A stretch of DNA of 64,000 bases from a virus, in the IMG/VR virus record IMGVR_UViG_2842357229_000002, positions 300 through 64,299 of that record, one strand, 5' to 3'. Made by a program: the position numbers and the translations under genes. Positions 6,010 through 57,835 of the stretch are shown here, piece after piece. A model generated the notes under the pieces. That model saw nothing but the letters and a program-made list of their open reading frames with translations. It did no database searches and was not told where the DNA came from. Positions within the stretch are counted from its first letter, which is position 1. Every line of letters begins with the position of its first letter.

Positions 6010-6061
6010 GAAGTCTCCTCTTCTGTGGTGTGATTGCCGATTGGTGGTCGGCGGGTGGTGG

Positions 6062-6232
6062 TTATTTCAGACGGATTGCACCGGGCATCTTCCCGCCTCC
6101 CCAATGCCGGGTGCACGCCTCATAATTGTGATCGCGCCCGCCGCAATACGTGCAGCGCAGATTGCTTGCCGTGCCGTTAGACGGGCAGCATGTGTAAGGG
6201 TGCCCGTCTTTGCCGCAGTAGCCGCACCGCAT
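6062..6232 (-). CDS. Small protein with two CCHC zinc knuckles
   Basis: CGYCGKDGHPYTCC and CTYCGGRDHNYEAC both fit CX2CX4HX4C; TGATG coupling to the upstream gene. Confidence 0.7.
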   Translation of the reverse strand: MRCGYCGKDGHPYTCCPSNGTASNLRCTYCGGRDHNYEACTRHWGGGKMPGAIRLK

Positions 6233-6444
6233 CAGACGCTCCATCCCATGAACTTCTTGAGGGTGTCACCTATGCGCGCAGCGACACCACAATGCTCTTG
6301 CGTCCGTCCGTAGGTAGTCATGTGCTCGCCGTGCGGCTCGGGGGAGTCATGGCATCGGCGAGCGTAGATGACGACTTGGTCGTAACCATAGTTCTTGGCG
6401 ATCATTTCCGCCGTGCTGATGGGGATGTCACGCATCGTACTCAC
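6232..6444 (-). CDS. Hypothetical phage protein
   Basis: 70 aa, coupled to neighbours. Confidence 0.6.
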   Translation of the reverse strand: MSTMRDIPISTAEMIAKNYGYDQVVIYARRCHDSPEPHGEHMTTYGRTQEHCGVAARIGDTLKKFMGWSV

Positions 6445-6599
6445 GCCACCCTCCTCTGCTCTGCCGGCACGTTGTCGTTTGCATTTGCGTAAAGCTCCGC
6501 CTGACGGATAACATCCAACTCCTGAACCTCATCAGACTGCGCCGCCACCCACGCATCAAATTCAACAATGGCCAGTTCAACTATTTCGTTGCCGGTCAC
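6441..6599 (-). CDS. Hypothetical 52-aa protein (not in ORF track)
   Basis: GTG start overlapping the upstream stop; MTGNEIVELAIVEFDAW...ANANDNVPAEQRRVA. Confidence 0.55.
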   Translation of the reverse strand: MTGNEIVELAIVEFDAWVAAQSDEVQELDVIRQAELYANANDNVPAEQRRVA

Positions 6600-7843
6600 G
6601 CCGCAGCCCTCAATGGAGCGTTGTCGTTTGCTGCATCAAGCATCGCGACACGAACACGCGAAATCTCGCCGTACTCCCTGTGGTAGGTGATCGTCTGCAG
6701 CGAACGGCCAGACAGGAAGCCGGAGCCGAAATGCCAAGCATCCTGCGGTATCGGTGCTTGGTGTGATTCCATAATCACGCCACCACCCTCCGTCGCAAGC
6801 TTAGACTTGTGGTGGACGTGGAATCCGTGGGCGTACCTGAACTTTGACGCTCCCCAGTCCTCGGCTCTGCGGTGCGCCATTATTCCCGGCATGTCCTGCA
6901 GCTTGGCCTCGTGGCCGTGTGTCGCAGAAATCATCACCTTGTCATAGCGACGATGGAAGAAGAGCGATTTGTCGAGATCTACGATGACACGAGGCTCGTT
7001 GCGATACCAAGCGTGCAGGAACCACGCGATTGCCGGCGCCGTCTCCTCGTCGTGGTTGCCCTTGAGATTGCGAACCTCAACGACAGCATTGCGTCTTAGC
7101 GCAGCGTCAATGGTGCGGACTAGAAGCCTGCCCGCAGTCTCCGTGACCTTGGTGTGCCTGCCGTCGACATCGAGGACGTTCTTGGATCTCGATGTCCTGT
7201 TCTCGTTGTTGTCTGCGTGTGTTAGGTCGCCTCCACCAAGAACGATTGCCACCCCGCTTGCCGGTGATCTGGCGACAGCCTCCTCAATACCGCGACCAAT
7301 GACGCGTTCCGCTATTTTCAGATCCCAGTTTTCGTCTGTCTCCTGGCTCCACGCGAACATTCCGACGTGCCAGTCATTGCATGGAATGAGCGTAACGAGC
7401 TCTTCTTGGACGTGTTCCGGCGCGGGCGTCGGGATGGCTGCCGGCTCATAGTTGGAGAATGCCGCCTTCAACGTTTCGGCGATGTCGATCGCCGACGGCT
7501 CTTCCCTCGTCTTCACCCACTTAAGGACTTCCCGCCCCTCTTCGTCGACGAGGGCCGAGACGCCTTTTATCGTATGGCCAGCCGGTACTTCAAATTCGGC
7601 GCCATGCTCGCGTCGCTGTTTGATATAGTCGCCGTTCGGCGTGTTGCTGACCTGCGCAATACGAAAACCCGGCAGCACTGGCTTCGTTCCCAACATCCCC
7701 CGCTCCGATGCAATCTTCAAGCGCGACTGAAAAGTAGTGCGGGACAGATGCAGAAAATCGGCCGCCGCTTGCTGCGAGCCAAGCGCGATGAACGCGTCGG
7801 CGGCTTCCTTGGCTAGTTCGTCTGATAATGGGCGAGTGGGCAA
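6596..7843 (-). CDS. Calcineurin-like metallophosphoesterase with N-terminal HTH
   Basis: NDWHVG, GGGDLTHAD, KGNHD, THGH, HGFHVHH motifs. Confidence 0.8.
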   Translation of the reverse strand: MPTRPLSDELAKEAADAFIALGSQQAAADFLHLSRTTFQSRLKIASERGMLGTKPVLPGFRIAQVSNTPNGDYIKQRREHGAEFEVPAGHTIKGVSALVDEEGREVLKWVKTREEPSAIDIAETLKAAFSNYEPAAIPTPAPEHVQEELVTLIPCNDWHVGMFAWSQETDENWDLKIAERVIGRGIEEAVARSPASGVAIVLGGGDLTHADNNENRTSRSKNVLDVDGRHTKVTETAGRLLVRTIDAALRRNAVVEVRNLKGNHDEETAPAIAWFLHAWYRNEPRVIVDLDKSLFFHRRYDKVMISATHGHEAKLQDMPGIMAHRRAEDWGASKFRYAHGFHVHHKSKLATEGGGVIMESHQAPIPQDAWHFGSGFLSGRSLQTITYHREYGEISRVRVAMLDAANDNAPLRAAA

Positions 7844-7845
7844 GA

Positions 7846-8085
7846 TTAGGATTCCTTCTTTCTTGCGGCGAGCATGGCGTCGGCATAGGCGTAAGAATCA
7901 TGTGCCAATCGCGCTGGCTCGAGATGTGATCCTGGCTCGCCAGCAAGAGCGCCGGCCATTGCCTTTATTGCCGCGTAATCGCGCAGCGACATGCCGCTAT
8001 TCAGGTGAACTGTTGTTCTGCCGTAGAAATCTTTAGTTTCGTGCGCACGCGGAAACGCAGCCCCGCCGTCATCAATCTTCACCAT
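7846..8085 (-). CDS. Conserved hypothetical phage protein
   Basis: DDGGAAFP...GMSLRDYAAIKAMAGALA pattern common in phage early proteins. Confidence 0.65.
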   Translation of the reverse strand: MVKIDDGGAAFPRAHETKDFYGRTTVHLNSGMSLRDYAAIKAMAGALAGEPGSHLEPARLAHDSYAYADAMLAARKKES

Positions 8086-8747
8086 CACGCCCGCCCCATC
8101 AGCATACAAACAGTCGAAGACGGCACGACCATACCAAAGCCGGCAAGCGACGGCGTAGCGCCAATAATGCCGCCGGGGAGGCTGGCAGACGCAACGCCTA
8201 CCGTGATACCAACCACGCGCCCATCAGGCTCGAATACCGGCCCGCCACTGGCGCCCATGACGATCGTAATGTCGGTAATCAACACCTGACGCCACGGTCC
8301 GAGCGCGCGAACGTCGCCAGCGATGCGACCGAAGGAAGAAACGAATTCAAGGTCCATAGGATTGCCTGCGGCCTGAATTTCTTCGCCAGCCTTCGCGGTT
8401 CGGCAATCAAGCGCGCTTCCGACGGCGGGCAGACCGACGGCGCGCAACAACGCGATATCGTATTCTTTGTTTACCCAGAGTACGTCGGCATCCATCTCGC
8501 GACCGTCGTTCGTCTTGAGCTTCACCTTTGCGTTGCCATCAGCAACGTGGCCGGCCGTGATGACGTAGCCATTGCCGATGTTGACGCCGGAACCGTGGCC
8601 GTCTTTCTCGGTGACCTTGACGACGGATGCTTCGGAAATCGTGCGCGGCGCTGACGTCTGCGCCGGGGCGGTGGCATAGGTGATGCCGCTGAATAGAAGT
8701 GCGGTAAGCGCTAGAACAAAGACTGCGGCATATCTGTAGTATCTCAT
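8085..8747 (-). CDS. Exported trypsin-like (S1) serine protease
   Basis: Signal-peptide-like N-terminus; catalytic motifs TAGHV, YDIALL, GASGGP. Confidence 0.85.
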   Translation of the reverse strand: MRYYRYAAVFVLALTALLFSGITYATAPAQTSAPRTISEASVVKVTEKDGHGSGVNIGNGYVITAGHVADGNAKVKLKTNDGREMDADVLWVNKEYDIALLRAVGLPAVGSALDCRTAKAGEEIQAAGNPMDLEFVSSFGRIAGDVRALGPWRQVLITDITIVMGASGGPVFEPDGRVVGITVGVASASLPGGIIGATPSLAGFGMVVPSSTVCMLMGRA

Positions 8748-8805
8748 GGCTGTCTCCTCTCGTGGTGTGGTGGGTGGTCGAGGCTGGTTGGTTGCCAGTT
8801 TTATT

Positions 8806-8834
8806 ACATTGCTGTAAACTTACAAATTTGTCAA
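8806..8834 (-). promoter_or_regulatory. Sigma70-type promoter with embedded ACAAATTTGT operator
   Basis: TTGACA at 8834-8829 overlapping the palindrome at 8822-8831. Confidence 0.7.
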
Positions 8835-8853
8835 GGATGGCAAGAGTAGAAAC

Positions 8854-8888
8854 AAAAAATGCCGCCTCCCCGGTTAAGGAGAGGCGGC
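8854..8888 (-). terminator. Terminator at the end of the late operon
   Basis: GCCGCCTC...GAGGCGGC stem followed by ATTTTTT on the minus strand. Confidence 0.7.
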
Positions 8889-8915
8889 TGGGTGAATTTT
8901 GCTGAGAATGTCACG

Positions 8916-10544
8916 TTAAAGCTCCACATCTAGGATGAGGAAGTCTTTCACGCCGAAGTAGATGGATCCTGAAGTAAAACCTGTCCCGCCCATATTAATA
9001 TAGCCTGCATTGGGTGTGACTGATGTGGGAGTGATCGTGGCTGCGGTTTCAGACCCGCCGCCAATCCTGATCATGCCGCTACTGCCAGAGGAGGGAATCA
9101 CACTTGGATTCGGCGTGCCACGCATCGTTCCAGTGTAATACGCCAAGGTGATCTGCGTAGTACTGAAGGCTTGGCCGACAGCGCCCGCACCGGCTTTTCG
9201 GCAATACCGTTCACACAGCGCCAGGTCCTGCTCGATATGCCGCGGCGCGTACGGCCATGTCTCACTCGATGCATCACCGCGCACCAACCCCCACACCATA
9301 TCGAGCATGACGTTCTGAGCCGCCGTCTGATCCGTCCACATGAAGACGATGAGGTTGTTGCATGAAGAGCTGATCGTCGCCTGAAGCGACCACGGCGTTA
9401 TGGTATTCGCTGTCGGGGTGATGGAGCCAACTGCGGCCACCGTTAGGCCGGACGCAAGGAAGAAGTTGCCTGCAGTGAACGTGCCGCTCGCCCAGTTGTT
9501 TACCACATCCGATGTGACGGTATCTGCGGTTCCGGTCCACTCAAGGATAGCGTAGCGAATGGTCTGGCTTGCTGAGCAACGCACAAACCCGCCTAGCGTC
9601 ACCGGCTTGCCGCGGACACGTTTGGCGGCGTATGCTTCTACGATCTGTGCATTGCCCATGCGCTGCGCGCTGGCCTGTGACTGCGTCAACCGCATCATGT
9701 ATGGCAGCCCATCGGCTACGTCCGTGATGACTGTCGGCGTGATGGATGCCGTTTGCACCAGCGCATAGTGCCGGTCGCACCAGTAAACGTCGTCCCCGCC
9801 GTACGCGACGGCGTTGATCCGCGTGTTGATCGCACCATCACCATTAATGAGCACATCGCGCATGCCGCCGAGCGGGCCGCCATTAAGGCTCGCCAGCGCC
9901 GAAATAGCTTGGCTTCCCATGTTTAGCGGGCCGGTCATCGTCCCGCCGGCCTTGTCCAACTTTCCGGCAACCGTGGTGGTTAAATCGGTGATCTGCTTTT
10001 GCAGTTTACCGAGCGCAGACAATATATTATCAGTCGTGCTTATAACCGCATTCGTCGCCGTACTAAGCCCTGTCAACACGGTGGCGAGGACGCGCGCCGC
10101 TGTGAAATATAGGTTCGTTGAGCCTTCCGTTACCGAATCCGTCGAGCTTGGAGACGGCGAAATTTCTACGTACGAGCTACCGGACCAACGATAGATTTTT
10201 CCCGTATCGTCGGCGACGTAGATTATGCCTGTGCTGCCTGTGCCAGGGAACGCCGCAAGATTGGCGTATTCCAGCACGTCATCCACGTATGATGGCAGTT
10301 GAGCGGCCGGAACCTTGCCGCCGCTATCAAGGCCGGCATAGCCGTTCGCCATGCCCTTATTCGCCGAATGTTCGGCGTCGGTAATGCCATACCCGGTCAG
10401 CGTTGTTGGCTTACCGGTTATGTCAGCCCATGCATTACTGCCGGGCGGTCCCTGAATTCCCTGCGGACCAGTTGGACCCTGCGGGCCAATGACAGCCACC
10501 TCCACGACGTTCGTGGACACTTCCAGAACTGTAACCTGATCCAT
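8916..10544 (-). CDS. Fibre/receptor-binding-like protein with a short collagen repeat
   Basis: GPQGPTGPQGIQGPPG, WADITGKPTTLTGYGITDA and KVPAAQLPSYVDDVLEY fibre-type motifs; beta-rich C-terminus. Confidence 0.65.
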   Translation of the reverse strand: MDQVTVLEVSTNVVEVAVIGPQGPTGPQGIQGPPGSNAWADITGKPTTLTGYGITDAEHSANKGMANGYAGLDSGGKVPAAQLPSYVDDVLEYANLAAFPGTGSTGIIYVADDTGKIYRWSGSSYVEISPSPSSTDSVTEGSTNLYFTAARVLATVLTGLSTATNAVISTTDNILSALGKLQKQITDLTTTVAGKLDKAGGTMTGPLNMGSQAISALASLNGGPLGGMRDVLINGDGAINTRINAVAYGGDDVYWCDRHYALVQTASITPTVITDVADGLPYMMRLTQSQASAQRMGNAQIVEAYAAKRVRGKPVTLGGFVRCSASQTIRYAILEWTGTADTVTSDVVNNWASGTFTAGNFFLASGLTVAAVGSITPTANTITPWSLQATISSSCNNLIVFMWTDQTAAQNVMLDMVWGLVRGDASSETWPYAPRHIEQDLALCERYCRKAGAGAVGQAFSTTQITLAYYTGTMRGTPNPSVIPSSGSSGMIRIGGGSETAATITPTSVTPNAGYINMGGTGFTSGSIYFGVKDFLILDVEL

Positions 10545-10906
10545 TACGCCGCCTCAAATTGATTTTTATAAATCGTCATGGTGCCGCTAAGAATTGTGGT
10601 GACGCATCCGTCCAAGTCGGTGATGCGGATCTGGTAGTCAGCGGTCGAAACCTTCGGCAACTCGTCGGTTTGTGTTGCGGTCGCGTGAAAGGAAATAGTG
10701 CCATCTGCGCCTACAATCGTGCCGGCGAGCACGAGGACGTCCGTCACCTTCACGCGGCCAAGACCGCGTTCGTAGGTGTACTGAATGGCCATTTCTGCCG
10801 TGTAGCCGGTAAGGTCGACGACCACACCGGCCGCCTTATAGGTTAGCGAGAAATCGAAGCAGTCGCCCTTGATGAGATAGGTGTCATATCGAGGCCGTGT
10901 CGGCAT
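10544..10906 (-). CDS. BppU-like Ig-fold adaptor protein
   Basis: KGDCFDFSLTY...VDLTGYTAEM...YQIRITD...TILSGTMTI pattern; coupled to the fibre gene. Confidence 0.55.
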   Translation of the reverse strand: MPTRPRYDTYLIKGDCFDFSLTYKAAGVVVDLTGYTAEMAIQYTYERGLGRVKVTDVLVLAGTIVGADGTISFHATATQTDELPKVSTADYQIRITDLDGCVTTILSGTMTIYKNQFEAA

Positions 10907-10909
10907 ATC

Positions 10910-11212
10910 TTATCCTGCTCTGGTGGTGCGCGTACGCTCAAAGGCGCGATCAAGGCGCTCGTGCAGACCGTCAATTCGGTTGCCTACACCTTCGATGGCG
11001 CGCAGAAGCTGCGCGGTCTGTTCCTGCATGCCGGCTTTGGTGGCGAATGTTTCCGCGGCGTGGAGTTTGTGGGCGGCAAGGTCTGCTTCCGCTTTTTCAG
11101 CTTTATCTCGAGCTGCATCAATCTTGCCCTCAACACGCCACCAAATGGTGAGAATTAGGCCGATTACGGGAACCATCGGCCCGACGGCCGCGATCAAATC
11201 AGCACCACTCAT
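10910..11212 (-). CDS. Single-TM coiled-coil protein of the lysis region
   Basis: One hydrophobic segment followed by a coiled coil; directly after the spanins. Confidence 0.6.
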   Translation of the reverse strand: MSGADLIAAVGPMVPVIGLILTIWWRVEGKIDAARDKAEKAEADLAAHKLHAAETFATKAGMQEQTAQLLRAIEGVGNRIDGLHERLDRAFERTRTTRAG

Positions 11213-12752: not shown

Positions 12753-12778
12753 GGTTTTTACAACCGTTGGGGATACAA

Positions 12779-36058: not shown

Positions 36059-37137
36059 GCCACCATCGCAAAAAGATTTGGTTGAGCAGGAGGCGTATCG
36101 CTCTTATGAGCGTTGCACTTACGACAGGCACATTGCGTATTAAAGTAGCTATGCGCTCCACCTAATGCTAGGGGCATGATGTGGTCCAACTCAGGAGCCT
36201 TGTCGTCAAGCGTGCCGCGCAGTTTTCGTGGCGTCTTCACACCGCATATCTGGCACTTCCACTTATCGCGGTCGAATACCTTAATCGGGTCTACGTTCTC
36301 CACATATGCAGCCCTAAGCATAGCTTCACGCTTCAACTTGCCGGTGCGCCGCCCGTTCCTTTTTGAACACTTGCCGCCACAGAACTTTCTGATTTTCTCC
36401 CCGTATGATGGCGAGAATACCGATCCGCACTCGGCGCATGGCCTTGGAGATCTATCAACGTTGTCGTTGGCTGCGTATCTGGCCCTGGCTTTGTCGCTGG
36501 CAATTGCCGCACGACATTCGTTCGAGCAGAACTTTGCCGTTGCGCCGTTTGCCGTAAAGGGCTTGTCACACACTGCGCAGCGTGGCCTAAATACCGTGAA
36601 CTTTGCAACCTTAACAAGGTCTGCAGAAGCGCGAAGATATTCGTGGCCACAATCTCGAGAGCAGAATAATGCTTTATCCTTTGCATTTGGATTGCGCTTG
36701 AAAGTTGCGCTACACCATTTGCATTCTCGCTCTTGTGCGTTCCTGTGCCTGTCGCGTCCCTGCTCTCCATATCTCCTTGCGCAATTCTTGCTGCAAAAAA
36801 TCTTTCCAGGCACACCAGTGAACTCGCCACCGCAACGAAGGCAGTTGCCGCTGATTAACTGTCGTTCCGGTTTCTGACGTAAGAGTTTTGGTTGTCGTGG
36901 CTTTTTGCGGCTATCGTCACGGCAGGTAGAGTCACAGAACTTGCGCCTTCGACCAGTGATTTCTTTTTCGCAATGAGCGCATTTCCAATCAGTAAACACG
37001 GGCGGATGCTTGCATGCATCGCATCGACTTGGCTTTGGCCCGCGCTTCGACGATGGTGCTATATTGCCACCGCACTCTATGCACTTCCTAAAATTATCAT
37101 TGGCGGCAACTGGCCCGCCGAATAGCGTATCAAACAA
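36055..37137 (-). CDS. HNH endonuclease with tandem zinc-finger repeats
   Basis: Five CxxC...FCxxxC repeats, then CQICG...ELDHIMPLALGG.H...N..CACRKCN..K. Confidence 0.85.
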   Translation of the reverse strand: MFDTLFGGPVAANDNFRKCIECGGNIAPSSKRGPKPSRCDACKHPPVFTDWKCAHCEKEITGRRRKFCDSTCRDDSRKKPRQPKLLRQKPERQLISGNCLRCGGEFTGVPGKIFCSKNCARRYGEQGRDRHRNAQERECKWCSATFKRNPNAKDKALFCSRDCGHEYLRASADLVKVAKFTVFRPRCAVCDKPFTANGATAKFCSNECRAAIASDKARARYAANDNVDRSPRPCAECGSVFSPSYGEKIRKFCGGKCSKRNGRRTGKLKREAMLRAAYVENVDPIKVFDRDKWKCQICGVKTPRKLRGTLDDKAPELDHIMPLALGGAHSYFNTQCACRKCNAHKSDTPPAQPNLFAMVA

Positions 37138-40635: not shown

Positions 40636-40673
40636 CTAAGTCTCCTCTTGTGGTGTGGTGATTTGGTAGACGG

Positions 40674-40702
40674 ACCTTGGTGTAAACATACAAATTTGTC
40701 AA
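40674..40702 (-). promoter_or_regulatory. Promoter with ACAAATTTGT operator
   Basis: TTGACA at 40702-40697; palindrome at 40690-40699. Confidence 0.65.
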
Positions 40703-41366: not shown

Positions 41367-41747
41367 GGACAAAACACCGGGACAACACCCACCCCTAAAG
41401 GGGTGTGGGGTTTTTGTCCCGCTAGATGTTCGGTTAAATAATTAGCGGGACAAAGCGGGACAAGCGGGACAAAACACCTTGTAAGTCATTGATTTTGCTA
41501 TGGGACAAAATGGGACAAAAAATAAATCTTGTCCCGCTGCCTATTTTTTAGCCGGACAAAACGCCGGGACAAGCCGATATTTTTCGTCCTTCTTGTCCTT
41601 ATAGGTTGTAACAACCTATGCACGCGAAGTTTTTGTCCCGCTGTTTTGTCCCGCTTGTCCTTTTCGGCACTTAAACCATTGATAAATAACCGGGACAAAA
41701 TGGGACAAGCGGGACAAAACGAAAATAAGGCAATTTCTTGCCTTATT
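41367..41747. repeat. Iteron-like GGGACAA array, probable phage replication origin
   Basis: 14 exact GGGACAA/TTGTCCC copies in both orientations, AT-rich spacers and two long palindromes, directly 3' of the primase-helicase. Confidence 0.7.
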
Positions 41748-46547: not shown

Positions 46548-46688
46548 ATCTGTCTCCTCTTATGGTGTTTCCCTGCCGAAGCAGGACCGCGCGTTGGTGG
46601 CGCGCGGTCGTGGTGATATAGAATGCTGAACGGGACGGCGCTGGTTATGCGCTATCCTGTGTCAACTGCGCGCTAGGGCGCTGTGGGG

Positions 46689-48494: not shown

Positions 48495-48531
48495 AATCGT
48501 CTCCTCTATGTGGTGGTGCATTGGTGTTTCA

Positions 48532-48560
48532 AACTTGCTGTAAAGTTACAAATTTGTCAA
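48532..48560 (-). promoter_or_regulatory. Promoter with ACAAATTTGT operator
   Basis: TTGACA at 48560-48555; palindrome at 48548-48557. Confidence 0.7.
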
Positions 48561-51316: not shown

Positions 51317-51379
51317 ATTATCTCCTCTTGTGGTGGTTGGCTGGTGAGGCCGAGTCCGAAAAATGTATATAAAAAGTGG

Positions 51380-52315
51380 TCAGTTGGCGTTGGTGGCGCC
51401 GTCAATGAATATGTCACCAGTAGGTGACCGATAAGTAATCGTCTCCTCGGCTTCCGAGCAGTCGATCTGCTCATATCCAACAAGCATCGCCGGGATATAC
51501 AGATGAGCCGGACAACCAGCGTCTTGTTCCGCCAGCGAAAGCGGCTTGCTCCATCTGGAACAATCCCAACCGGCGTGGCCATCAAGCAGGGCGGATGCGT
51601 GGATGCACGTACGACAATGGGCGCGCGGCAGCTCCTCTCCCCAGCAAACCGCAGCCTGTCGGCAGAATGTGCCGCGGAAATCGTCACGCTTGCTGCACAG
51701 ACGCGATGGCGGCTCTGGCATGTTGATAATGCGTTCGATTTTGGCGACCTGGCGGATGGCAAAATCGGCGTCGTAAGGCACGCGCTCGAAATGTAGATCC
51801 TCGTCGTTCTTGTTCGACATCATGTAGTAGACGCGATCGACTCCTGTCCCAAACATATAGAACTGGAACGTCGCATAGTGCTCGGGCTTACCGACCTTGA
51901 CGCCGTGCTTCTTTACCTTCCTGAAGATGTCGTCCTTTGCGCTCTTGCACTCGACGATATGCTCCTTGGTGGGCGCCTCAATGATGCCGAGGGCGCGACC
52001 GTCAATCTTCCCGCGAAGGTGGCCGCCGGCCGCCCTAACGCGGTCTTGCTGGCCCCACACCTGAACGTCGACGAGCCGCAACAGGTCAAGCAGTCGCTCT
52101 TCCTCGATATTGCCTCGCTCGAAGATGCGGCGCTTGCGCCACGTGATTACTTCCGGAACTGACGCGCGCCGGAAGGCAAACCAGATTTGTCGATCGCACT
52201 CGAGGCCGATGTCGCCAGCCGGCACGCCGACGGATTCCCATTCGTCGCCGCTGGCGGCGAGTGCCTCGTGGACGGCGCGGAGCGTGCTTGGCGTTGGGCG
52301 CGGGATTGGTGCCAA
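51380..52315 (-). CDS. Cas4-like PD-(D/E)xK exonuclease
   Basis: ECDRQIW, GKIDG, ECKS, QFYM and C-terminal Cys cluster (FCRQ..VC...CRTC). Confidence 0.8.
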   Translation of the reverse strand: MAPIPRPTPSTLRAVHEALAASGDEWESVGVPAGDIGLECDRQIWFAFRRASVPEVITWRKRRIFERGNIEEERLLDLLRLVDVQVWGQQDRVRAAGGHLRGKIDGRALGIIEAPTKEHIVECKSAKDDIFRKVKKHGVKVGKPEHYATFQFYMFGTGVDRVYYMMSNKNDEDLHFERVPYDADFAIRQVAKIERIINMPEPPSRLCSKRDDFRGTFCRQAAVCWGEELPRAHCRTCIHASALLDGHAGWDCSRWSKPLSLAEQDAGCPAHLYIPAMLVGYEQIDCSEAEETITYRSPTGDIFIDGATNAN

Positions 52316-52316
52316 T

Positions 52317-52580: not shown

Positions 52581-52858
52581 GACGCCGCCGAGAACAACGG
52601 CGATGACTGCAGCGCAGACTGGTGGCCGCGAACGTCATCCTTCATGACGTAGGTGGTCCAAAGCTCGCGGCCGCCGCGTGTGACAGGATGCATCTCTTGG
52701 ATGTTGAAGTTCACATCGTCGATACTGTCTGCATCGATGTCGAAGTCGTCGCGGTTCACTTCGGCTTCGACGGTGGCCTCTGCGGCCTCCATCGATTCTG
52801 CTTCGATTGTCCGACAAGACCGGCCTTGAAACGTGTAGTCGACCATGAATTTTGGCAT
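52577..52858 (-). CDS. Hypothetical protein
   Basis: 93 aa, coupled. Confidence 0.6.
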   Translation of the reverse strand: MPKFMVDYTFQGRSCRTIEAESMEAAEATVEAEVNRDDFDIDADSIDDVNFNIQEMHPVTRGGRELWTTYVMKDDVRGHQSALQSSPLFSAAS

Positions 52859-52861
52859 CGC

Positions 52862-53926
52862 CTAGACCCTCATCGGCATCAAGACGGCCAGCAGGTTCTC
52901 GGCCTTCTCAGACGTAAACACGGCCGGAGAACCGCTGTCGGCCAAGGCCAGGGTGATATCGCCGGCCGGGAAGATGCCGATGAGTTCGGCGAGGTAGGCC
53001 GCATTAAAGCCGATCTCGATAGGGTCGCCATCGTAGGAGACGACGATTTCATCCGATGCACTGCCCGAATCCGGATTGCTCACGTCCAGCGTCGCTTTGC
53101 CATCAGCGAACGAGAGTTTGACAGCCCTACCGCGCTCAGAGGAAATGACGCTGACGCGGCCCGATGCCTGGCGCATTTCATCGCTGCCGAAGACAATTTT
53201 CTTATCATTGCCCGTCGGAATGACGCGCTGATAGTCTGGGAACGTGCCATCGATCAGTTTGCTGGTGAGCACGAAGTCGCCGGCAGCAATGCGGATCTTC
53301 GCTTCCGAGACTGACACGTTGACTGTGCCCTTGGGAACGACGCCAACCGCCTTGCGGGGTACGATAACGCCCTTAAAGGCATCCTCACCAGTGTACGGCA
53401 TTTGGTGGCGCGAAAGCCGGTGGCCATCCGTCGATACGGCGCGAATGAACTGGTCTTGGAGGTGGATGAACACGCCGTTCAGATAATAGCGTGTCTCCTC
53501 GGTCGACATGGCGAAAGCAACCGGCGCCAGAAGCGCGGCCAGATCAATGTCGAAGGTGGCGTCGAACTTGCCGCCATCCAGAGAAGGAAAGTCAGCAGCT
53601 GCCAGCGTAGGCAACGCAAACCGGCTACGGCCTGATTTTACGACAAGGCGATCAGCTTCCAGGCTGATTGAGATATCGCCGCCGGCCTTTTTGGAGATGT
53701 CCTGCAGAAGCTTGGCGTCGACGCAGATGCTGCCTGGCTCGCTTACGTCCGCAGGCGCGGTGTCGGTCGCGACGATATCGAGATCCGTGCCCGTGACGCG
53801 CAGCGTGCCGTTGTCGGCATGCAGAAGCACGTTGCCAAGGATCGGGATGGTGTTTCTTGACTCGATGACGCGGCCGACGTTGGTCAGCACGCGCGCGAGG
53901 TCTGATTTGGGGATGGTGAGTTTCAT
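52862..53926 (-). CDS. dnaN: DNA polymerase III beta sliding clamp, phage copy
   Basis: RNTIPILGNVLL, GTDLD, STEETRYYLNG, STDGHRL, LIDGTFPDYQRVIP, IGFNAAYL, VLMPMRV. Confidence 0.95.
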   Translation of the reverse strand: MKLTIPKSDLARVLTNVGRVIESRNTIPILGNVLLHADNGTLRVTGTDLDIVATDTAPADVSEPGSICVDAKLLQDISKKAGGDISISLEADRLVVKSGRSRFALPTLAAADFPSLDGGKFDATFDIDLAALLAPVAFAMSTEETRYYLNGVFIHLQDQFIRAVSTDGHRLSRHQMPYTGEDAFKGVIVPRKAVGVVPKGTVNVSVSEAKIRIAAGDFVLTSKLIDGTFPDYQRVIPTGNDKKIVFGSDEMRQASGRVSVISSERGRAVKLSFADGKATLDVSNPDSGSASDEIVVSYDGDPIEIGFNAAYLAELIGIFPAGDITLALADSGSPAVFTSEKAENLLAVLMPMRV

Positions 53927-54002
53927 GGTGGTGGTCTCCTCTGGTAGTGGATACGCTGGTGGTGGGGTTGCCGCATGGTTGGTGGCCATGCGGCGGTAGG
54001 GG

Positions 54003-54857
54003 TTAGGCGGCGAGGCCGAGCAACGAGAACGGCGAAGACCGATCGCGAGCCGGCGGCTCATAATCTACGGGGTAGCCTAAGCCATCCTCGCCTTCGTCAA
54101 AGCGGCTTGCGTCGAACGCCTCGCCCTTGAGTTCCGCCAATTTCTTCTGCATGCCGATTGCGTAGCTCGGTTGCGCCTCGTTGTCGTTGGCAATGAACGT
54201 GTCGCGACCGTCTTCCGTGACCGTCAGCGCCTCAATGGCTGCGTCGAGCGAGAATTCCTTGTCCTCGCCAGCCAAGACGACCTTTTCGCCATAGGCGCCG
54301 CCGATTTGGTCTTTCAGTTCCTCCCAAGTGTCGATTTTCACTTTGCGGCTGGCCAGTGCAATCTTGAGGATGTCACCCTTGCCGATGGTATAGCCGCGAT
54401 CTTGATATTTCAGAACGCGCGTAGCCGACGCCAGCGGATATCGCGTGCCAGGATGGAAGCGAAGGAAGCGTTGCGAGTTGTGTTTCAGGAAGTCATCATG
54501 GAATGCGAATTCGCCGTTGTCGAAGTCGTAAGCACCCATGACGACCGTGAAGTCGAACGCATCGAAGATGGCCTGCGCAGTCGGGAAGAAGTCGAAGTGC
54601 ATGAACTGGATAGGTGTGCCGCCCCCACTGTTCACGAATGTAACGGCGCGCTTGGTTGTCGACACGCACCACATGCTTTCTTCATAGGCTTGCGCGACTG
54701 CATACTCGAAAGCCTCACGACTCTTGAAATAGACGTCTACATCGTTGATGTCCTTGCCAGCGAACACACTGGTAACCGCTCCGCCGGCTGCGAAAGCGCC
54801 GGGGATCGGGTAGCACTTTTCGGTAATCTTGCGGGCTTCTGCTCTGTAATCGGTCAT
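54003..54857 (-). CDS. Pol-beta-superfamily nucleotidyltransferase (CCA/poly(A) polymerase head-like)
   Basis: AAGGAV...DINDVDVYF; FDFTVVMGAY. Confidence 0.7.
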   Translation of the reverse strand: MTDYRAEARKITEKCYPIPGAFAAGGAVTSVFAGKDINDVDVYFKSREAFEYAVAQAYEESMWCVSTTKRAVTFVNSGGGTPIQFMHFDFFPTAQAIFDAFDFTVVMGAYDFDNGEFAFHDDFLKHNSQRFLRFHPGTRYPLASATRVLKYQDRGYTIGKGDILKIALASRKVKIDTWEELKDQIGGAYGEKVVLAGEDKEFSLDAAIEALTVTEDGRDTFIANDNEAQPSYAIGMQKKLAELKGEAFDASRFDEGEDGLGYPVDYEPPARDRSSPFSLLGLAA

Positions 54858-54916
54858 ATTAGTCTCCTCTTGTGTGGTGAAGTGGCGGGCCGCTGGTGAC
54901 GACCCGCCGGTTTATT

Positions 54917-55507
54917 TTACTTGGAGCCCCATGGGCGGCGACCACTCGGCGCCGCCGCTGCGGCAGCCGGACGTGCAGCCTGGCGGTTGTCGTTTGCTGC
55001 CGGTGCCCGATTGTCGTTTGCTGCGGCAGGCTTCTCGTCGTCAGGCTGGATTGCGTCGATGCCGAGTTCCGGCAACTCCTCGTCTGGGAAGAAGTATCGC
55101 TTGATCTCGGCACGGCCTGGATATTCCTTGCCATCCTTGCCGACCGACGGCTTGCCGCGACCAACCTTGGCGACGAAAGCCATGAAGTGGAGCTCTTCGG
55201 AATCTTCGACCGACGTTACGCCGATGGCGCGGCAAAGGCTGGCGAACTGCTTCTGTCCGATTTCCTGCGCCTGCGGATTTGCATTTTCGAGATTGTAGTT
55301 GTTGTTGAAGATCTTTCGGCCTTTGTATTCCTCCGGCTCGACGACCGTGACCGTCGTTGCCAAGTATGTGCCAGTGCCTTTGCTGGTCGGCTTCACTTCC
55401 GATGCCTCGATCTCAAGGCGAAAGATTCCGTTCGGCAGTTCGCCTGCGAATTCTCTCTGCGTGGTGTCATGCTGCGTAGCGTCAAAAGATGTAGAAAGTT
55501 TAGCCAA
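54917..55507 (-). CDS. DUF669 ssDNA-binding-like protein
   Basis: ELPNG.F...I.ASEVK.T..G.G.YL...GRKIF.N.NL.N...A..IG; start at TTG 55507 behind a GGAGA RBS. Confidence 0.8.
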   Translation of the reverse strand: MAKLSTSFDATQHDTTQREFAGELPNGIFRLEIEASEVKPTSKGTGTYLATTVTVVEPEEYKGRKIFNNNYNLENANPQAQEIGQKQFASLCRAIGVTSVEDSEELHFMAFVAKVGRGKPSVGKDGKEYPGRAEIKRYFFPDEELPELGIDAIQPDDEKPAAANDNRAPAANDNRQAARPAAAAAAPSGRRPWGSK

Positions 55508-55681
55508 TTTTAGTCTCCTTCTGTGGTGGTTAGTTGGTGAGTGCGTAGTAGCGCCAAGCGCCGCTACCGTATGCGGTGTGCGCACATTCGCGCAGCACGT
55601 ATTCAAGCCACGCCCAACGACTGCCGTTGCGCGTTTTGACGACGACGGGATGCCAGGCAAACCATTGCTCTTGGTGGAACA

Positions 55682-55876
55682 TCAGGCGGCCTCCTTCGAA
55701 AGCTCCTTAGCTTTCATTGTTGCCAGCCGCTTGTCTGCGAACTCCAACGGCTTGTTGTCGTTGGTGACGGTTGCCCATAAGCCGCGCTCGACCTCAGCTA
55801 CGAGGGTGAACTTGCCGCCGCTTAGGGCAACTTTGTGCTTGCGGCCTTGGACGGGGTTGCAGGTGAAGGCGGTCAT
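55682..55876 (-). CDS. Hypothetical protein
   Basis: 64 aa, coupled. Confidence 0.55.
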   Translation of the reverse strand: MTAFTCNPVQGRKHKVALSGGKFTLVAEVERGLWATVTNDNKPLEFADKRLATMKAKELSKEAA

Positions 55877-56679
55877 GCGGCTTCGCTTGCGGCTGTAGCC
55901 GTCGTCATCAGGTACTTGGAAAGCTCAGCAAACCCCTGGCCCGCCTTGTAGGGTATTTGAGCCGGCGCGCCTTTGAAGCGGTTCTTCGCCAAGAATCCGG
56001 CGCGCTCGTCGGTGTGAATGATGCGCTCAGAGCCTGACATGCCTTCCGGCTTGCTGGTCTTCTTGCCGCCGAAAGCAGCCTCAACCTGCTTTACGGACGT
56101 GCGGCGATTGATGAAAAGAAGCGCCTTGCAGTTTTCGATGACCAGATCCAATGCTCGCTTTTGTAGCTTGGGCCGGTAGCGATCGTAGGAGTCGACGAGC
56201 GGGTCGTTGAAGTTCTTCGTTTCGCTGTGGAGAATTTGGACGACGTACATACCAGCGCGGGTCAAGGCGCCGACGGCTTCGAAATATTCGCCCCATTCGA
56301 CATCGGCGCCAAGGTAGCCCTTTCCGAAGGATGTCGGAGAGCCCTTGTCGTTGCTGTCGATGACATCCCATCCGTTGCGGGCGCACGTTGCCGCCCACAC
56401 CATCGGCTCAACCTTATCTAGGCTGTCGATGATAACGGTTTGGAATTCGTGTTCCTGCTCAAGCAGGTCGGCGAATGTATCGAGTAGGCCGGCGAAAGAA
56501 GTGATCTGGTCAGACGGCAATTCGACGCCATCCGGCGGCTCTTCGCCCTCAACGAAGAGATAAACGGGATTAGGGAATTCTGCGGCCAGCGAAGTCTTGC
56601 CAACGCCTGGCGTGCCGTAGATGGCGATAGCAGGCGGGTTGACGCGCTTGCTAGATTTCAATCTGTCGAAAACAGACAT
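55873..56679 (-). CDS. AAA_24 (Sak4-like) ATPase
   Basis: IYGTPGVGKT, IIDSLD, FGKGY, AKNR. Confidence 0.85.
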   Translation of the reverse strand: MSVFDRLKSSKRVNPPAIAIYGTPGVGKTSLAAEFPNPVYLFVEGEEPPDGVELPSDQITSFAGLLDTFADLLEQEHEFQTVIIDSLDKVEPMVWAATCARNGWDVIDSNDKGSPTSFGKGYLGADVEWGEYFEAVGALTRAGMYVVQILHSETKNFNDPLVDSYDRYRPKLQKRALDLVIENCKALLFINRRTSVKQVEAAFGGKKTSKPEGMSGSERIIHTDERAGFLAKNRFKGAPAQIPYKAGQGFAELSKYLMTTATAASEAA

Positions 56680-56691
56680 TTCTTCTCCTTC

Positions 56692-56817
56692 CTAGAAATA
56701 AAACGCCGCTGCTATAACCAGCAGAGCGATGACGACCGGCCACCAACTGAACGGGTTGGGCGGCCACATGCGGGTAGCGGTTTGCCGCCGAGGTAGGGGC
56801 GCGCTAATGGTTGTCAT
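56692..56817 (-). CDS. Small membrane peptide (41 aa, not in ORF track)
   Basis: MTTISAP...WWPVVIALLVIAAAFYF. Confidence 0.45.
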   Translation of the reverse strand: MTTISAPLPRRQTATRMWPPNPFSWWPVVIALLVIAAAFYF

Positions 56818-57070
56818 TCTTGGCCTCGTGTTTGTCAGCCAGCTTGCCGCCAGCCCACACAGAGGCCGCCACGACGCCGAGAGCGAGCGCGGTTAGGCCG
56901 ATGGTCGGATATACGAACAACGCGATTGCGGCCGCCGCTATGGTGGCTGCTAGGGCGGCTCGCCGAAGTGCGCGGCGGGGTTTGTGGACTTTGGTGACGG
57001 GCACGTAGTCGCGCGGTGCGCCGGGGAATGGCGCAGGCGTGAACGGTGTGGACCAGGGGGATTTGGTCAT
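56804..57070 (-). CDS. Two-TM hypothetical protein
   Basis: Two hydrophobic segments after a basic stretch. Confidence 0.6.
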   Translation of the reverse strand: MTKSPWSTPFTPAPFPGAPRDYVPVTKVHKPRRALRRAALAATIAAAAIALFVYPTIGLTALALGVVAASVWAGGKLADKHEAKNDNH

Positions 57071-57606
57071 GCTGCCAACCCCTTCGGAGTGTCATCGTTT
57101 TCCGCCAGCACCTTGTAAAGATGACTGGATGCGGTCATGAAAACGATGATGCCTTCCGGCTTCATGAACCCCGGCGCCGCCTGCGATCCGGTCTCCTTGA
57201 GGTTGTCGAGCACCCAATCGACCGTGTCAGTCGCGAACTGGCCGACATAGAGGAGCGGCACGACATCGCAGCATGCGGGGCGTACGGCGGCATCCGACCA
57301 GCGACCCGTATTGAACAGCGAGAAGCGCTTTTCCTTCAAGCCGTAGTTGCGTTGGATGCCATTGCCCCACCACTCGCCGAAGTGCTGGCCTGGTCCGAGC
57401 TTGAGCAGTTCCTCCTTGTTGCGCTCGACCCAACCGGCGAAGCCGTAGTTGTCTGCCTCTGGTGTAATCCAGCGATTGCGGCTGCCGGCGCGGACAGATC
57501 CGTCTTCGCCGACGACAACCTGCGCATTCGTGCCGTCGAGCTTTTCTGTGATGATGCAGCCTCTCTTGAGGCGCGGTATTTTCGGGAACGGGATGAAGTC
57601 GGTCAT
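57067..57606 (-). CDS. Rnl2-like RNA ligase (adenylation domain only)
   Basis: ITEKLDGTN (motif I), FGEWWG, FSLFN, PEGIIV, YKV. Confidence 0.8.
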   Translation of the reverse strand: MTDFIPFPKIPRLKRGCIITEKLDGTNAQVVVGEDGSVRAGSRNRWITPEADNYGFAGWVERNKEELLKLGPGQHFGEWWGNGIQRNYGLKEKRFSLFNTGRWSDAAVRPACCDVVPLLYVGQFATDTVDWVLDNLKETGSQAAPGFMKPEGIIVFMTASSHLYKVLAENDDTPKGLAA

Positions 57607-57770
57607 GCTGCATACCGCGCATTCTGGCGGGCGCTGCTGAACGGGTACGCCTTCCCCTTCGGCTGAACCGGCGCATAGCGGCTGGCCGGGTAGCTGCTGG
57701 GCTGGCGGGCGTTGGCCTTGTCAACCTTGGCTTGGTGGCGCGCCGCAGCGCGTTCTGTCTGTCTGGACAT
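57603..57770 (-). CDS. Basic 55-aa protein (not in ORF track)
   Basis: GAGGAGA RBS; MSRQTERAAARHQAKVDK...ARYAA; ATGA overlap. Confidence 0.55.
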   Translation of the reverse strand: MSRQTERAAARHQAKVDKANARQPSSYPASRYAPVQPKGKAYPFSSARQNARYAA

Positions 57771-57835
57771 AAAGATCTCCTCTTAGCCGTGCGGTTGGTG
57801 GCCGCGCGGCGTTGCTGTGGTGGCAGTTGGTGGTG

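Follow-up and report, generated by a model that had tools for sequence, protein, structure and literature searches.

The question raised by this locus is why several gene starts of one viral genome should be preceded by hairpins that have different stems and the same seven-nucleotide loop, and whether that loop is read by a partner. The window, i.e., the whole stretch of DNA that was analysed, comprises 64,000 nucleotides (positions 300 to 64,299 of IMG/VR virus record IMGVR_UViG_2842357229_000002).

Hairpins upstream of gene starts

Reading the minus strand, we found all five CCACCAA hairpins, and the CAACCAA variant, exactly where the original prediction had placed them; five such hairpins compare with a mean of 0.04 and a maximum of 1 in 300 dinucleotide-preserving shuffles. 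A seventh site, at 54884-54908, was absent from that prediction. The seven hairpins are:

6036-6052 (element 6032..6056), minus strand: leader hairpin GCCGA-CCACCAA-TCGGC, 5 bp, 5′ of ORF 6009; R1 23.3 bits
8784-8798 (element 8779..8803), minus strand: variant hairpin CTGG-CAACCAA-CCAG, 5′ of a trypsin-like protease gene; R1 22.3 bits
46585-46609, minus strand: leader hairpin GACCGCGCG-CCACCAA-CGCGCGGTC, 9 bp, 5′ of MT-A70; R1 33.3 bits
51386-51400 (element 51381..51405), minus strand: weak hairpin GGCG-CCACCAA-CGCC, 4 bp; R1 23.9 bits
53970-53994, minus strand: leader hairpin GCCGCATGG-CCACCAA-CCATGCGGC, 9 bp, 5′ of dnaN; R1 34.3 bits
54884-54908, minus strand: leader hairpin GGCGGGTCG-TCACCAG-CGGCCCGCC, with a U.G pair, 5′ of a 284-aa nucleotidyltransferase-like gene; R1 27.3 bits
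57786-57810, minus strand: leader hairpin GCCGCGCGG-CCACCAA-CCGCACGGC, 8 of 9 bp with one C.A, 5′ of ORF 57770; R1 34.4 bits

The CCACCAA heptamer itself occurs 35 times in the window (6.6 expected), and two of the six perfect hairpins with stems of at least 9 bp have it as their loop. The downstream genes named in the original prediction, i.e., MT-A70, a sigma factor (regions 2 and 4) and dnaN, were borne out. The placement of each hairpin between the end of one gene and the next ribosome-binding site held in general; the exception was the weak hairpin at 51386-51400, located inside the last seven codons of a Cas4-like exonuclease ORF (..D G A T N A N stop), approximately 58 nt upstream of the sigma-factor ribosome site. 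Because of this location, its conservation could come from protein coding, and since its variants in relatives are synonymous Ala codons, coding and RNA constraint are inseparable at this site.

Conservation of the loop in related phages had been set as a test, and the hairpin is present in all 16-3-like rhizobiophages examined, phage 16-3 included, with 5–7 sites per genome, mostly 2–30 nt 5′ of a ribosome site. The most conserved junction follows a gene for a 355-aa protein, where hairpin 57786-57810 stands 2 nt 5′ of AAGAGGAGA and the start of ORF 57770; orthologues with stems GCCGTGCGG/CCGCACGGC and GCCGTGCGC/GCGCACGGC occur in TM3_14B, AP-16-3, NV1.1.1, L003, L006 and L024. The hairpin upstream of dnaN was kept in all six relatives fetched, with a compensatory change from U-A to C-G and, in L007, a wholly different stem. 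Orthologues of 54884-54908 carry the loops TCACCAA, CGACCAA or TTACCAG on compensatorily changed stems, those of 46585-46609 (behind which stands another hairpin, with a UUCG loop) carry CCACCAA or CTACCAA, and the short stem at 6036-6052 has longer orthologues (TGCCGCCGA/TCGGCGGCA and CTGCTGCCGG/TCGGCAGCAG) in TM3_14B and X2_25. Hairpin 8784-8798 lies at approximately +1 to +20 behind a predicted promoter (TTGACAAATTTGTA..CAATGT), an arrangement repeated in TM3_14B, G001, NV1.1.1, L011 and L024.

The hairpin is always on the gene strand, and its orientation tracks the gene in the opposite-strand operons of L004, NV1.1.1 and AP-16-3. Stems are unlike between copies within one genome and vary between orthologous sites by compensatory substitutions; they contain U.G pairs, which fit the sense strand only. 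The loop follows the consensus N-N-A-C-C-A-A, with positions 3–6 unchanged at upwards of 50 sites from many phages, and in an unbiased count of heptaloop hairpins, xxACCAA was the commonest loop in six of eight genomes. Because the stems drift compensatorily while loop positions 3–6 stay invariant, the loop is under purifying selection. The earlier reading of variable stems with an invariant loop as a recognised RNA element is thus supported by strandedness, compensatory stems, U.G pairs and retention of the loop across many phages; judged from these sequence patterns, the element works at the RNA level. X2_25 and G003, the relatives furthest away, keep a hairpin at the orthologous junction but close it with a UUCG or UACC tetraloop; the stem can therefore function without the ACCAA loop.

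The gene-start cassette

The hairpin is the first part of a longer cassette, in which the GC-rich stem with its 7-nt loop is followed by a G-poor CA box (CACCACA) and then by a ribosome-site box, AAGAGGAGAC. In the window, its core is exemplified by:

54861..54881, minus strand: cassette core CACCACA-C-AAGAGGAGAC before an ATG
Starts at 59459, 57770, 53926, 51316, 48494, 46547, 40635, 8747 and 6009: preceded by equivalent boxes

Approximately 55% of CACCACA copies lie at most 45 nt upstream of a start, and in three host genomes of the Rhizobium group (6.7–8.4 Mb) nearly all copies of the composite motif fall in prophage regions. Cassettes stand either between cistrons or at the extreme 5′ end of predicted transcripts behind TTGACAAATTTGT promoters, where the hairpin begins at approximately +1 to +8. 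They lead early genes as well as genes for replication, sigma factors and accessory functions. Across phages, the junction behind the 355-aa gene leads into at least five different genes, and because the next gene differs between phages this junction represents a mosaic boundary.

A structured RNA in the immunity region

As one of its options, the original prediction had proposed that a candidate small RNA with a UGGUGG segment at 60349-60358 pairs with the hairpin loops. This segment lies inside a conserved, structured RNA with GU-rich loops and an anti-SD box, to which the following features were assigned:

60247..60384, plus strand: conserved structured small RNA ('anti-leader' RNA), approximately 140 nt; R2 122.9 bits
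60248-52 and 60260-64: stems of its 5′ hairpin, with loop UGUGGUG at 60253-59
60300-08: GUCUCCUCC in an apical loop; an AGUAGGA box is also present in the RNA
60333-41 paired with 60367-75: long hairpin, holding GUGGUGGUGG at 60349-58
60212..60241, plus strand: predicted RNA promoter, TTGACA with ACAAATTTGT operator, 18-nt spacer and TGG-TATACA (extended -10)
60418..60455, both directions: bidirectional intrinsic-terminator-like hairpin downstream of the small RNA

The promoter is predicted from its agreement with the consensus; its TTGACAAATTTG and TGGTA are invariant in seven phages, it has the same operator as the early promoters, and it is overlapped by an inverted repeat (60225-60245) whose minus-strand loop reads ATACCAA. 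Several relatives have a U run directly after the long hairpin of the RNA. RNAalifold returned 36 pairs, 20 of them with compensatory changes; over 17 distinct sequences, 90.9% of cells were paired, a value reached by none of 500 shuffles, and many G.U pairs are compatible with the plus strand only. In seven phages, invariant boxes are combined with covarying stems. Model R2 matched at 20 places among the loci searched, and each hairpin-bearing record that is at least 90% complete has exactly one copy of the RNA. Phage 16-3, which also has the hairpins, carries it at 36884-37022(-), within an unannotated gap. The RNA is unannotated in the records checked and undescribed. No Rfam match reached the gathering score in the window; when 60150-60700 was searched with E values as high as 5, no match fell inside 60247-60384 and none was to RF01695 (C4). 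On the minus strand, the region has no conserved ORF after it and is located behind terminators. The fold and its covariation show a structured non-coding family in the immunity region, the transcription of which is predicted.

Three invariant boxes are exposed in this RNA, and their pairing partners are likewise invariant: UGUGGUG is complementary to CACCACA, GUCUCCUC to GAGGAGAC, and GUGGUG to CACCAC. The exact complements of these boxes are the CA box and the SD box. Of the proposed pairing, then, the RNA itself stands, but the hairpin loop matches it over only 4–6 nt (ACCA:UGGU where ACCAA meets the invariant GUGGU; 5–6 bp for CCACCAA), and because of this the part played by the hairpin itself is only putative. 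In such a pairing, the final loop A, which is invariant, would be set against a G of the RNA, and a loop selected for pairing should read CACCAC, as it does at only a few sites (AP-16-3, NV1.1.1, L026). Loop and RNA showed no covariation, since both are invariant. Among the three mechanisms originally put forward, the small-RNA idea nevertheless fared best.

Proposed antisense control and competing readings

We give a nearly even chance to antisense control, the likeliest mechanism, in which the RNA pairs with the cassettes, ribosome binding is blocked and the hairpin acts as a structured part of the cassette. One RNA of approximately 140 nt from the immunity region, antisense to early genes, would pair with the CA box and the ribosome-site box and so block ribosome binding. 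On the leaders, which are rich in C and poor in G, the block might lead on to Rho-dependent polarity or to decay, and the whole cassette-led gene set would be damped together, like icd/ant under P1 C4 RNA. The hairpin would form a cap at the 5′ end, either of the message itself or of a fragment left by processing, and its loop would display a CA-type motif (CCACCA) as a possible first contact for the GU-rich loops of the RNA. More tentatively, and with some doubt, we propose that 16-3-like rhizobiophages run a riboregulated regulon, in which one RNA of approximately 140 nt with three invariant loops acts on a uniform adaptor, made up of the ACCAA-loop hairpin, the CA box and the SD box, that stands before more than ten genes (early, replication, sigma-factor and cargo), the anticodon-loop-shaped ACCAA heptaloop serving as kissing entry. 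What the sequences show directly is the hairpin with its strandedness and conservation, the architecture of the cassette, the RNA family with its fold, the complementarity, and the joint occurrence of RNA and hairpins; that the RNA is transcribed, pairs in vivo and represses, and most of all that the ACCAA loop acts as a kissing site, is inferred from them.

In phages P1/P7 (immI) and satellite phage P4, the C4 and CI RNAs constitute a second layer of control beside the protein repressor, by translation block and then transcriptional polarity. The RNA described here resembles them as a predicted small untranslated RNA of the immunity region with loops complementary to boxes at or near the ribosome site. 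Both traits were found in silico: a structured non-coding RNA in the immunity region (predicted promoter, terminator, no conserved ORF, covariation), and exposed loops complementary to at least two ribosome-site boxes. It has no sequence or Rfam relationship to C4, and its putative targets are more than ten dispersed, cassette-sharing gene starts instead of one operon; whereas C4 is excised from its target transcript by RNase P, the RNA here has its own predicted promoter, and the host is an alphaproteobacterium. For P1 immI, full repression of ant is stated to require the C4 antisense RNA (PMC8198154, citing Citron and Schuster 1990).

The SAS/ESAS elements of Cluster K mycobacteriophages are another relevant comparison. 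SAS is a conserved ribosome-site box near many starts, mostly in the non-structural arm, with an inverted repeat just upstream of approximately half of the sites and a function that is unknown; the sequence of the ESAS arms is conserved, and evidence for a hairpin in the mRNA was, according to the authors, slight (PMC3203893, PMC12699233). The cassette similarly combines a phage-specific ribosome-site box a few bases before starts with an upstream inverted repeat. In contrast to ESAS, its arms are free to vary, and do so in a correlated way, around a constant loop, and the sequences and hosts are different. Neither the 13-bp GGGATAGGAGCCC nor the 17-bp inverted repeats of conserved sequence were found at the cassettes, where the box is AAGAGGAGAC and the arms covary, and for SAS no antisense partner has been described, unlike the candidate RNA here.

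Binding of the loop by a phage or host protein, either in boxB/N-type antitermination or by a translational repressor or activator reading ..ACCAA.., with the CA-rich flanks as Rho loading sites as in lambda nutR-tR1, is in our view unlikely. It would account for stems that vary beneath a constant loop, as is classically seen where a protein binds a hairpin, and for the invariant last loop A, which RNA pairing leaves unexplained. As with lambda nutL and nutR, hairpins with a sequence-specific loop occur in the promoter-proximal leader and in intercistronic gaps, their C-rich, G-poor flanks resemble rut sites, and there is one Arg-rich small ORF (36 aa, 60521-60631(-)), the first gene of the leftward transcript, conserved in amino acids with synonymous changes. 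The 355-aa protein, found in all relatives, with three SH3/KOW-like repeats and encoded just 5′ of the best-conserved site, is a further candidate, as a lead only. However, the Arg-rich ORF, present in the window, G002, TM3_14B and G001, is absent from four hairpin carriers (AP-16-3, NV1.1.1, X2_25 and G003), such that an N-family Arg-rich protein does not accompany the sites in every phage. No CGCUCUUUA-like boxA was found a few nt upstream of a hairpin in the window; searched as GCTCTTTA with at most one mismatch, boxA gave 39 matches against 37.5 expected, none upstream of any hairpin. The heptaloop also differs from the GNRA-like pentaloop of nut, and the up to seven sites per genome, close before ribosome sites with no terminator behind them, are unlike nut sites; the boxB/nut claim of the original prediction is weakened accordingly. 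No conserved early protein with a recognisable RNA-binding domain was found, and a host regulon is opposed by the lack of high-scoring hairpins outside prophages in host genomes (150 candidates scored per genome).

Comparably improbable is a purely structural hairpin, i.e., a 5′ cap against 5′-end-dependent RNase E/RNase J or a cistron insulator, with the loop kept by descent and cassette recombination at gene-shuffling junctions, as for the PeSL stem-loops of T4-type phages. Copies close to a promoter do come first in the predicted transcript, the small RNA also begins with a hairpin, and both the tetraloop hairpins of X2_25 and G003 and the mosaic boundary after the 355-aa gene fit this reading. 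PeSL are efficient terminators, always accompanied by a promoter, and these cassettes mediate modular shuffling; like the cassettes here, they are repeated stem-loop regulatory units heading early or accessory genes, at which the gene content of relatives differs (PMC2839356). Most copies here are, in contrast, intercistronic, without U runs, and with a fixed loop and ribosome-site box; only 8779-8803 follows a promoter in the window, where PeSL combine a sigma-70-type promoter with a terminator stem-loop. Moreover, neutral descent or gene conversion would homogenise the stems also, or let the loop drift, which is at odds with purifying selection on the loop.

That the hairpins are transcription terminators, attenuators or pause sites is very improbable: their GC-rich stems lie between genes and PeSL stem-loops are terminators (PMC2839356), but none of the seven is followed by the U run of an intrinsic terminator, which the obvious terminators of the window (loop positions 41737, 3803, 23734, 60546) do have. 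CA-rich sequence comes after them instead, and most sites are followed directly by a ribosome site; several stand at the transcript 5′ end, directly behind a promoter, and termination needs no fixed loop sequence. Least credible is an element working in the DNA itself, whether as a cruciform, as a hairpin of single-stranded DNA during replication or recombination, or as a signal like Chi (TGGTGG when the opposite strand is read). In its favour, the motif is strand-biased and CCACCA is the complement of the E. coli Chi core. Against it, a single genome can hold sites in both orientations, each following the direction of its gene, the sites keep to 5′ UTRs and the gaps between cistrons, and U.G pairs are A.C mismatches on the opposite strand.

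For sixty years geneticists have used phage 16-3 as a model, and accounts of its immunity have been framed around protein repressors (immC, immX). If antisense control by the small RNA is true, a conserved, unannotated RNA beside the repressor genes would add an RNA layer to the 16-3 switch, directly testable in a tractable system, and one RNA may control a whole gene set of Rhizobium phages including 16-3. Any gene placed behind the adaptor would join the regulon at once, which would tie the exchange of modules to a common post-transcriptional control. For rhizobia, the cassette together with its RNA could be made into an orthogonal part for controlling translation. If real and shared by unrelated prophages, the layout of fixed-loop hairpin, ribosome-site box and RNA would be a general, overlooked means for block control and swapping of accessory genes in temperate phages, and could explain puzzles such as the SAS/ESAS motifs.

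Conservation of the leader hairpins

The source record is an IMG/VR provirus of 65 kb whose minus strand carries nearly all genes. Its distant relatives included isolated Rhizobium and Sinorhizobium phages, and related prophages were located in Rhizobium ruizarguesonis, R. leucaenae and Metarhizobium album. To the same phage group belongs 16-3 (DQ500118), a classic temperate phage beside which AP-16-3 has been placed (PMC10460002). At 3000-3042, dozens of unrelated metatranscriptome contigs matched a 40-nt stretch only, with tRNA-like continuations; this stretch is probably a tRNA-derived attachment-site repeat marking one prophage end.

The five hairpins with a CCACCAA loop and the CAACCAA variant of the original prediction were all found at the described places and in the described form, and a seventh site was detected:

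6036-6052, minus strand: leader hairpin, loop CCACCAA
8784-8798, minus strand: leader hairpin, loop CAACCAA
46585-46609, minus strand: leader hairpin, loop CCACCAA
51386-51400, minus strand: hairpin within an ORF end, loop CCACCAA
53970-53994, minus strand: leader hairpin, loop CCACCAA
54884-54908, minus strand: seventh site, GGCGGGTCG-TCACCAG-CGGCCCGCC
57786-57810, minus strand: leader hairpin, loop CCACCAA

Five CCACCAA hairpins compare with a mean of 0.04 and a maximum of 1 in 300 dinucleotide-preserving shuffles, and this loop closed two of the six perfect hairpins in the window with stems of at least 9 bp. MT-A70, sigma factor and dnaN genes lay downstream of sites as had been stated. The claimed placement between a gene's end and the next ribosome-binding site also stood, except for 51386-51400, which lies within the last codons of a Cas4-like exonuclease ORF; the relatives' variants there exchange synonymous Ala codons, so that the site taken alone is no evidence. 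Directly after the hairpin at 46585-46609, a second small hairpin with a UUCG tetraloop was observed (CCUGC-UUCG-GCAGG; 46567-46581, minus strand), with CCCUGC-UGCU-GCAGGG at the equivalent place in the relative L002.

The hairpin upstream of dnaN was kept in all six relatives fetched. Its stems showed a compensatory change (GCCGCATGG/CCATGCGGC vs. GCCGCACGG/CCGTGCGGC) and were elsewhere wholly different (GGCGGGC/GCCCGCC), while its loops were CCACCAA, CAACCAA or CUCACCA. The window and seven near-complete relatives together contained 44 hairpins with an NNACCAA loop, approximately 33 of them with a ribosome site and start codon within 60 nt downstream; these were all on the strand of the downstream gene, including in the opposite-strand operons of L004, NV1.1.1 and AP-16-3. 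An unbiased census covering every hairpin with a 7-nt loop gave gene-strand xxACCAA as the commonest loop in six of the eight genomes. Phage 16-3 carried hairpins as well. A covariance model of the leader hairpin (R1) recovered the seven window sites, none in the structural-gene region, and 34 further sites among 69 other IMG/VR loci, with new stems differing by compensatory changes (GCUGCACGG/CCGUGCAGC, GGCGGCUCG/CGGGCCGCC, AGCGGCUGG/CCAGCCGC). Because the R1 alignments were built from sites chosen as hairpins, their pair counts are not independent support; this is provided by the orthologous comparisons and by the loop census.

The loop consensus was N-N-A-C-C-A-A, with A-C-C-A invariant, the last A nearly invariant and positions 1-2 free. 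Stems contained U.G pairs, e.g., within GGCGGGUCG/CGGCCCGCC, which are A.C mismatches on the opposite strand. The proposal that variable stems around an invariant loop denote an RNA element was thus borne out by compensatory stems, gene-strand orientation, U.G pairs and a loop kept across many related phages. From these comparisons of sequence, we conclude that the hairpin is a sense-strand RNA element whose loop is under purifying selection. The whole genome of the rhizobiophage TM3_14B (RHph_TM3_3_14B; MN988496) additionally contained 18 plus-strand hairpins with 7-nt loops and the common loop xxCAGGT, a repeat distinct from the ACCAA family and not related to it.

The leader cassette

A common layout was observed at every site: G-poor CA-rich sequence, hairpin, CACCAC(A) box (CA box), the ribosome-site (SD) box AAGAGGAGAC, 5-7 nt and the start codon, often preceded by an upstream ORF ending in GCC GCC TAA. 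The CA and SD boxes occurred at about a dozen starts in the window, seven of which also had the hairpin, and approximately 55% of CACCACA copies were within 45 nt upstream of a start. Where a TTGACAAATTTGT promoter was present (window 8779-8803; TM3_14B, G001, NV1.1.1, L011, L024), the hairpin began at approximately +1 to +8 of the predicted transcript. In three host genomes (6.7-8.4 Mb), the composite CACCAC-N0-6-GAGGAGA was almost confined to prophage regions, as were R1 matches (150 candidates scored per genome). This near-confinement in the three genomes argued against a host regulon and indicated a phage-specific cassette as opposed to a translation signal in general use by the host.

At the best-conserved junction, which follows the gene for a 355-aa protein, at least five different genes came next in different phages; mosaic boundaries, too, are marked by the cassettes. 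X2_25 and G003, the most distant relatives, keep a hairpin at this junction, but with a UACC or UUCG tetraloop. The PeSL cassettes of T4-type phages show the same shuffling behavior but combine a promoter with a terminator (PMC2839356). In Cluster K mycobacteriophages, the SAS/ESAS have the same placement as the cassette; however, the ESAS arms are conserved in sequence, and an mRNA hairpin is little supported (PMC3203893, PMC12699233). The AP-16-3 paper makes no mention of hairpin, stem-loop, antisense, sRNA or intergenic (PMC10460002).

The 355-aa protein (57836-58903, minus strand), whose gene ends at this most conserved hairpin junction, was present in all eight genomes with 33-48% identity and contains the repeat K(F)KVGDRV three times. 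Neighbors in the atlas were, at low TM (0.2-0.3), repeat proteins of the SH3, KOW or Spt5-like kind, together with a cluster labeled ribosomal L7/L12; for the X2_25 homologue, an L7/L12 domain is annotated. Several early proteins end in Ala-Ala-stop (in every case GCC GCC TAA; 57836-58903, 59190-59459, 57603-57770 and 54003-54857, all on the minus strand), reading ..RAA, ..VAA, ..YAA and ..LAA and containing ANDN, and in relatives this ending was seen again at independent junctions. Nucleotide-level conservation covers the final two codons and the stop, directly before the CA-rich leader; a TAA stop is expected to be rare at this genome's G+C. The Ala-Ala ending resembles the C-terminus of the ssrA tag of alphaproteobacteria.

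The first early gene (start 59459) has a terminator-like hairpin (GGCGUC-AAACCG-GACGCC-UUUU; 59486-59510, minus strand) in its leader, between operator and CA box, which may be a leader attenuator. Among RNA records, none was listed as covering the early region; contigs of four root metatranscriptome runs covered short stretches of 6441-7444 and, from one relative, its copy of 6013-6064, matches that carry no information on transcript ends or processing.

A predicted small RNA complementary to the cassette

A conserved element of approximately 140-200 nt was common to the window and all seven relatives; it runs antisense to the early genes and lies directly downstream of the second repressor-like gene (59573-60205, plus strand). 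The element, with the small RNA predicted at 60247-60384 (plus strand), comprises, in order:

predicted promoter, TTGACAAATTTG..TGGTAnnnn
5' hairpin with invariant loop UGUGGUG and free covarying stems (GCUGA/UCAGU, UCAC/GUGA, UCGC/GCGA, GCGCC/GGCGU)
covarying helix whose apical loop holds an invariant GUCUCCUC
box UAGUA(G/C)GA
long covarying hairpin holding a mini-hairpin (CAC/GUG, CAG/CUG, CGG/CCG, CGA/UCG) with invariant loop GUGGUG
U-rich tail or separate bidirectional terminator

RNAalifold predicted 36 pairs, 20 of them with compensatory changes. In the alignment of the places found with a small-RNA covariance model (R2), 90.9% of cells were paired and 13 pairs had double changes, values reached by none of 500 shuffles. 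The many G.U pairs fit the plus strand only, and no conserved ORF was found in the element on either strand; read on the minus strand, the locus is a leader without a gene behind, downstream of terminators.

R2 found the small RNA in 20 places among the collected loci. It was present in seven of ten further hairpin-carrying IMG/VR records (four of four with at least 90% completeness) and in 16-3, where it occupies an unannotated gap between p069 and p070 (36884-37022, minus strand; 117 bits). With blastn against the phage collection, TM3_14B was the sole match, with nothing annotated under it, and the covariance model was needed for the others. Two tandem copies occurred in the IMG/VR relative L114 (7036-7174 and 7191-7308, plus strand), the second much diverged (18.9 bits). 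The small RNA had no Rfam match, the window contained no tRNA or Rfam family at gathering score, and an E-value scan of the immunity region gave chance-level Rfam matches only, which ruled out a tRNA or known Rfam identity.

Two 210-codon ORFs overlap on opposite strands beside this locus (59573-60205, plus; 59531-60163, minus). Only the plus-strand ORF matched a phage repressor family (phrog_4), with homologues in all relatives, and the minus-strand ORF is probably spurious. Copies of the TTGACAAATTTGT(A) promoter/operator were located at 8806-8834, 40660-40690, 48520-48550, 60209-60222 and 59500-59520; it would drive the predicted small RNA as well as early and cargo operons. The ACAA-N2-TTGT of the operator resembles the ACAA..TTGT operators of the 16-3 C repressor, and the G003 version differs (TTGACAATTTTGTAAATATAAACTATTGTCA).

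The small-RNA loop UGUGGUG is an exact complement of CACCACA, GUCUCCUC is complementary to GAGGAGAC and the loop GUGGUG to CACCAC, all three targets being invariant boxes of the cassette. The C4 RNA of P1/P7 and the CI RNA of P4 likewise aim three exposed loops at a ribosome site and its flank; this antisense immunity is the same kind of mechanism, with no sequence relationship to the predicted small RNA. Full repression of ant depends on C4 (PMC8198154). Given the complementary invariant boxes and the C4/CI-like loop design, antisense control by the predicted small RNA is rated the best-supported mechanism for the cassette as a whole, and we consider it moderately probable.

The earlier idea that the hairpin loops seed pairing with this RNA stood in part: invariant small-RNA loops complement the CA and SD boxes, whereas the hairpin loop itself would fit more weakly. 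Its ACCA pairs with UGGU, and CCACCA : UGGUGG gives 6 bp in the window's own RNA, but the invariant last A would face a G and the fully complementary CCACCAC occurred at only a few sites. Nothing covaries between loop and small RNA because both are fixed.

Other conserved small-RNA boxes (UAUCGAA, UAGUAGGA) had no complements in the leaders, and RNAduplex on whole leaders gave long, meaningless duplexes that did not separate cassette genes from others. The hairpin at 60225-60245 (plus-strand loop UUGGUAU) was rejected as a kissing partner: its conserved TGGTA falls on the extended -10 of the predicted small-RNA promoter, and from phage to phage the first base of the loop varies independently of the last A in the target. 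Pairing with 16S rRNA was likewise rejected; the sole UUGGUGG of a Rhizobium 16S rRNA presumably lies in helix 11, paired with a CUACCAA strand, judging from the flanking sequence.

Alternative readers and the proposed role of the hairpin

A protein reading the hairpin loop is possible and could account for the invariant last A, which RNA pairing leaves unexplained. An Arg-rich 36-aa ORF (60521-60631, minus strand; MRRAKKENPPRRAVAPKGAGPPRRRTGRHEGGLSYL) also favors this reading; it is real, its amino acids being conserved through synonymous changes in G002, TM3_14B and G001. However, it was absent from four hairpin-bearing phages (AP-16-3, NV1.1.1, X2_25 and G003), and for this lack of co-conservation the peptide was rejected as a universal reader. 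An RNA-binding domain was recognized in none of the conserved early proteins. The more specific suggestion of boxB/nut-like antitermination was weakened by the same absence, by the lack of a boxA and by a number and placement of sites unlike those of nut sites. The Arg-rich ORF comes first after a sigma-70-like promoter (60698-60669), has an intrinsic terminator hairpin (60554-60534) inside its 3' end, and contains the anti-SD-like CCUCCCAGAAGA twice in its mRNA. Among three further candidate readers, the zinc-knuckle protein, RNA ligase and nucleotidyltransferase, only the ligase had a Pfam match. Nucleotidyltransferase homologues were found by tblastn in G001/G002 only (in a compared gene set that excluded the ligase and zinc-knuckle ORFs), which argued against this protein as the reader.

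A purely structural hairpin with a loop kept by descent is doubtful, as it conflicts with free stems around a fixed loop. A DNA-level signal is unlikely, since the orientation flips with the gene and the stems contain U.G pairs. That the hairpins are terminators is highly improbable, U runs being absent after them.

The 5'-terminal position and the tetraloop replacement show that the stem is of use in itself, most plausibly as a cap that protects from 5'-end-dependent decay. The flanking A residues of the hairpin loop could be structural if the loop resembles an anticodon loop, in which positions 3-7 are stacked on the 3' side; ACC would then be presented with AA stacked on it, and the loop would display the CA motif. 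We tentatively propose that the hairpin combines a protective cap with a displayed CA motif within an antisense-controlled cassette.
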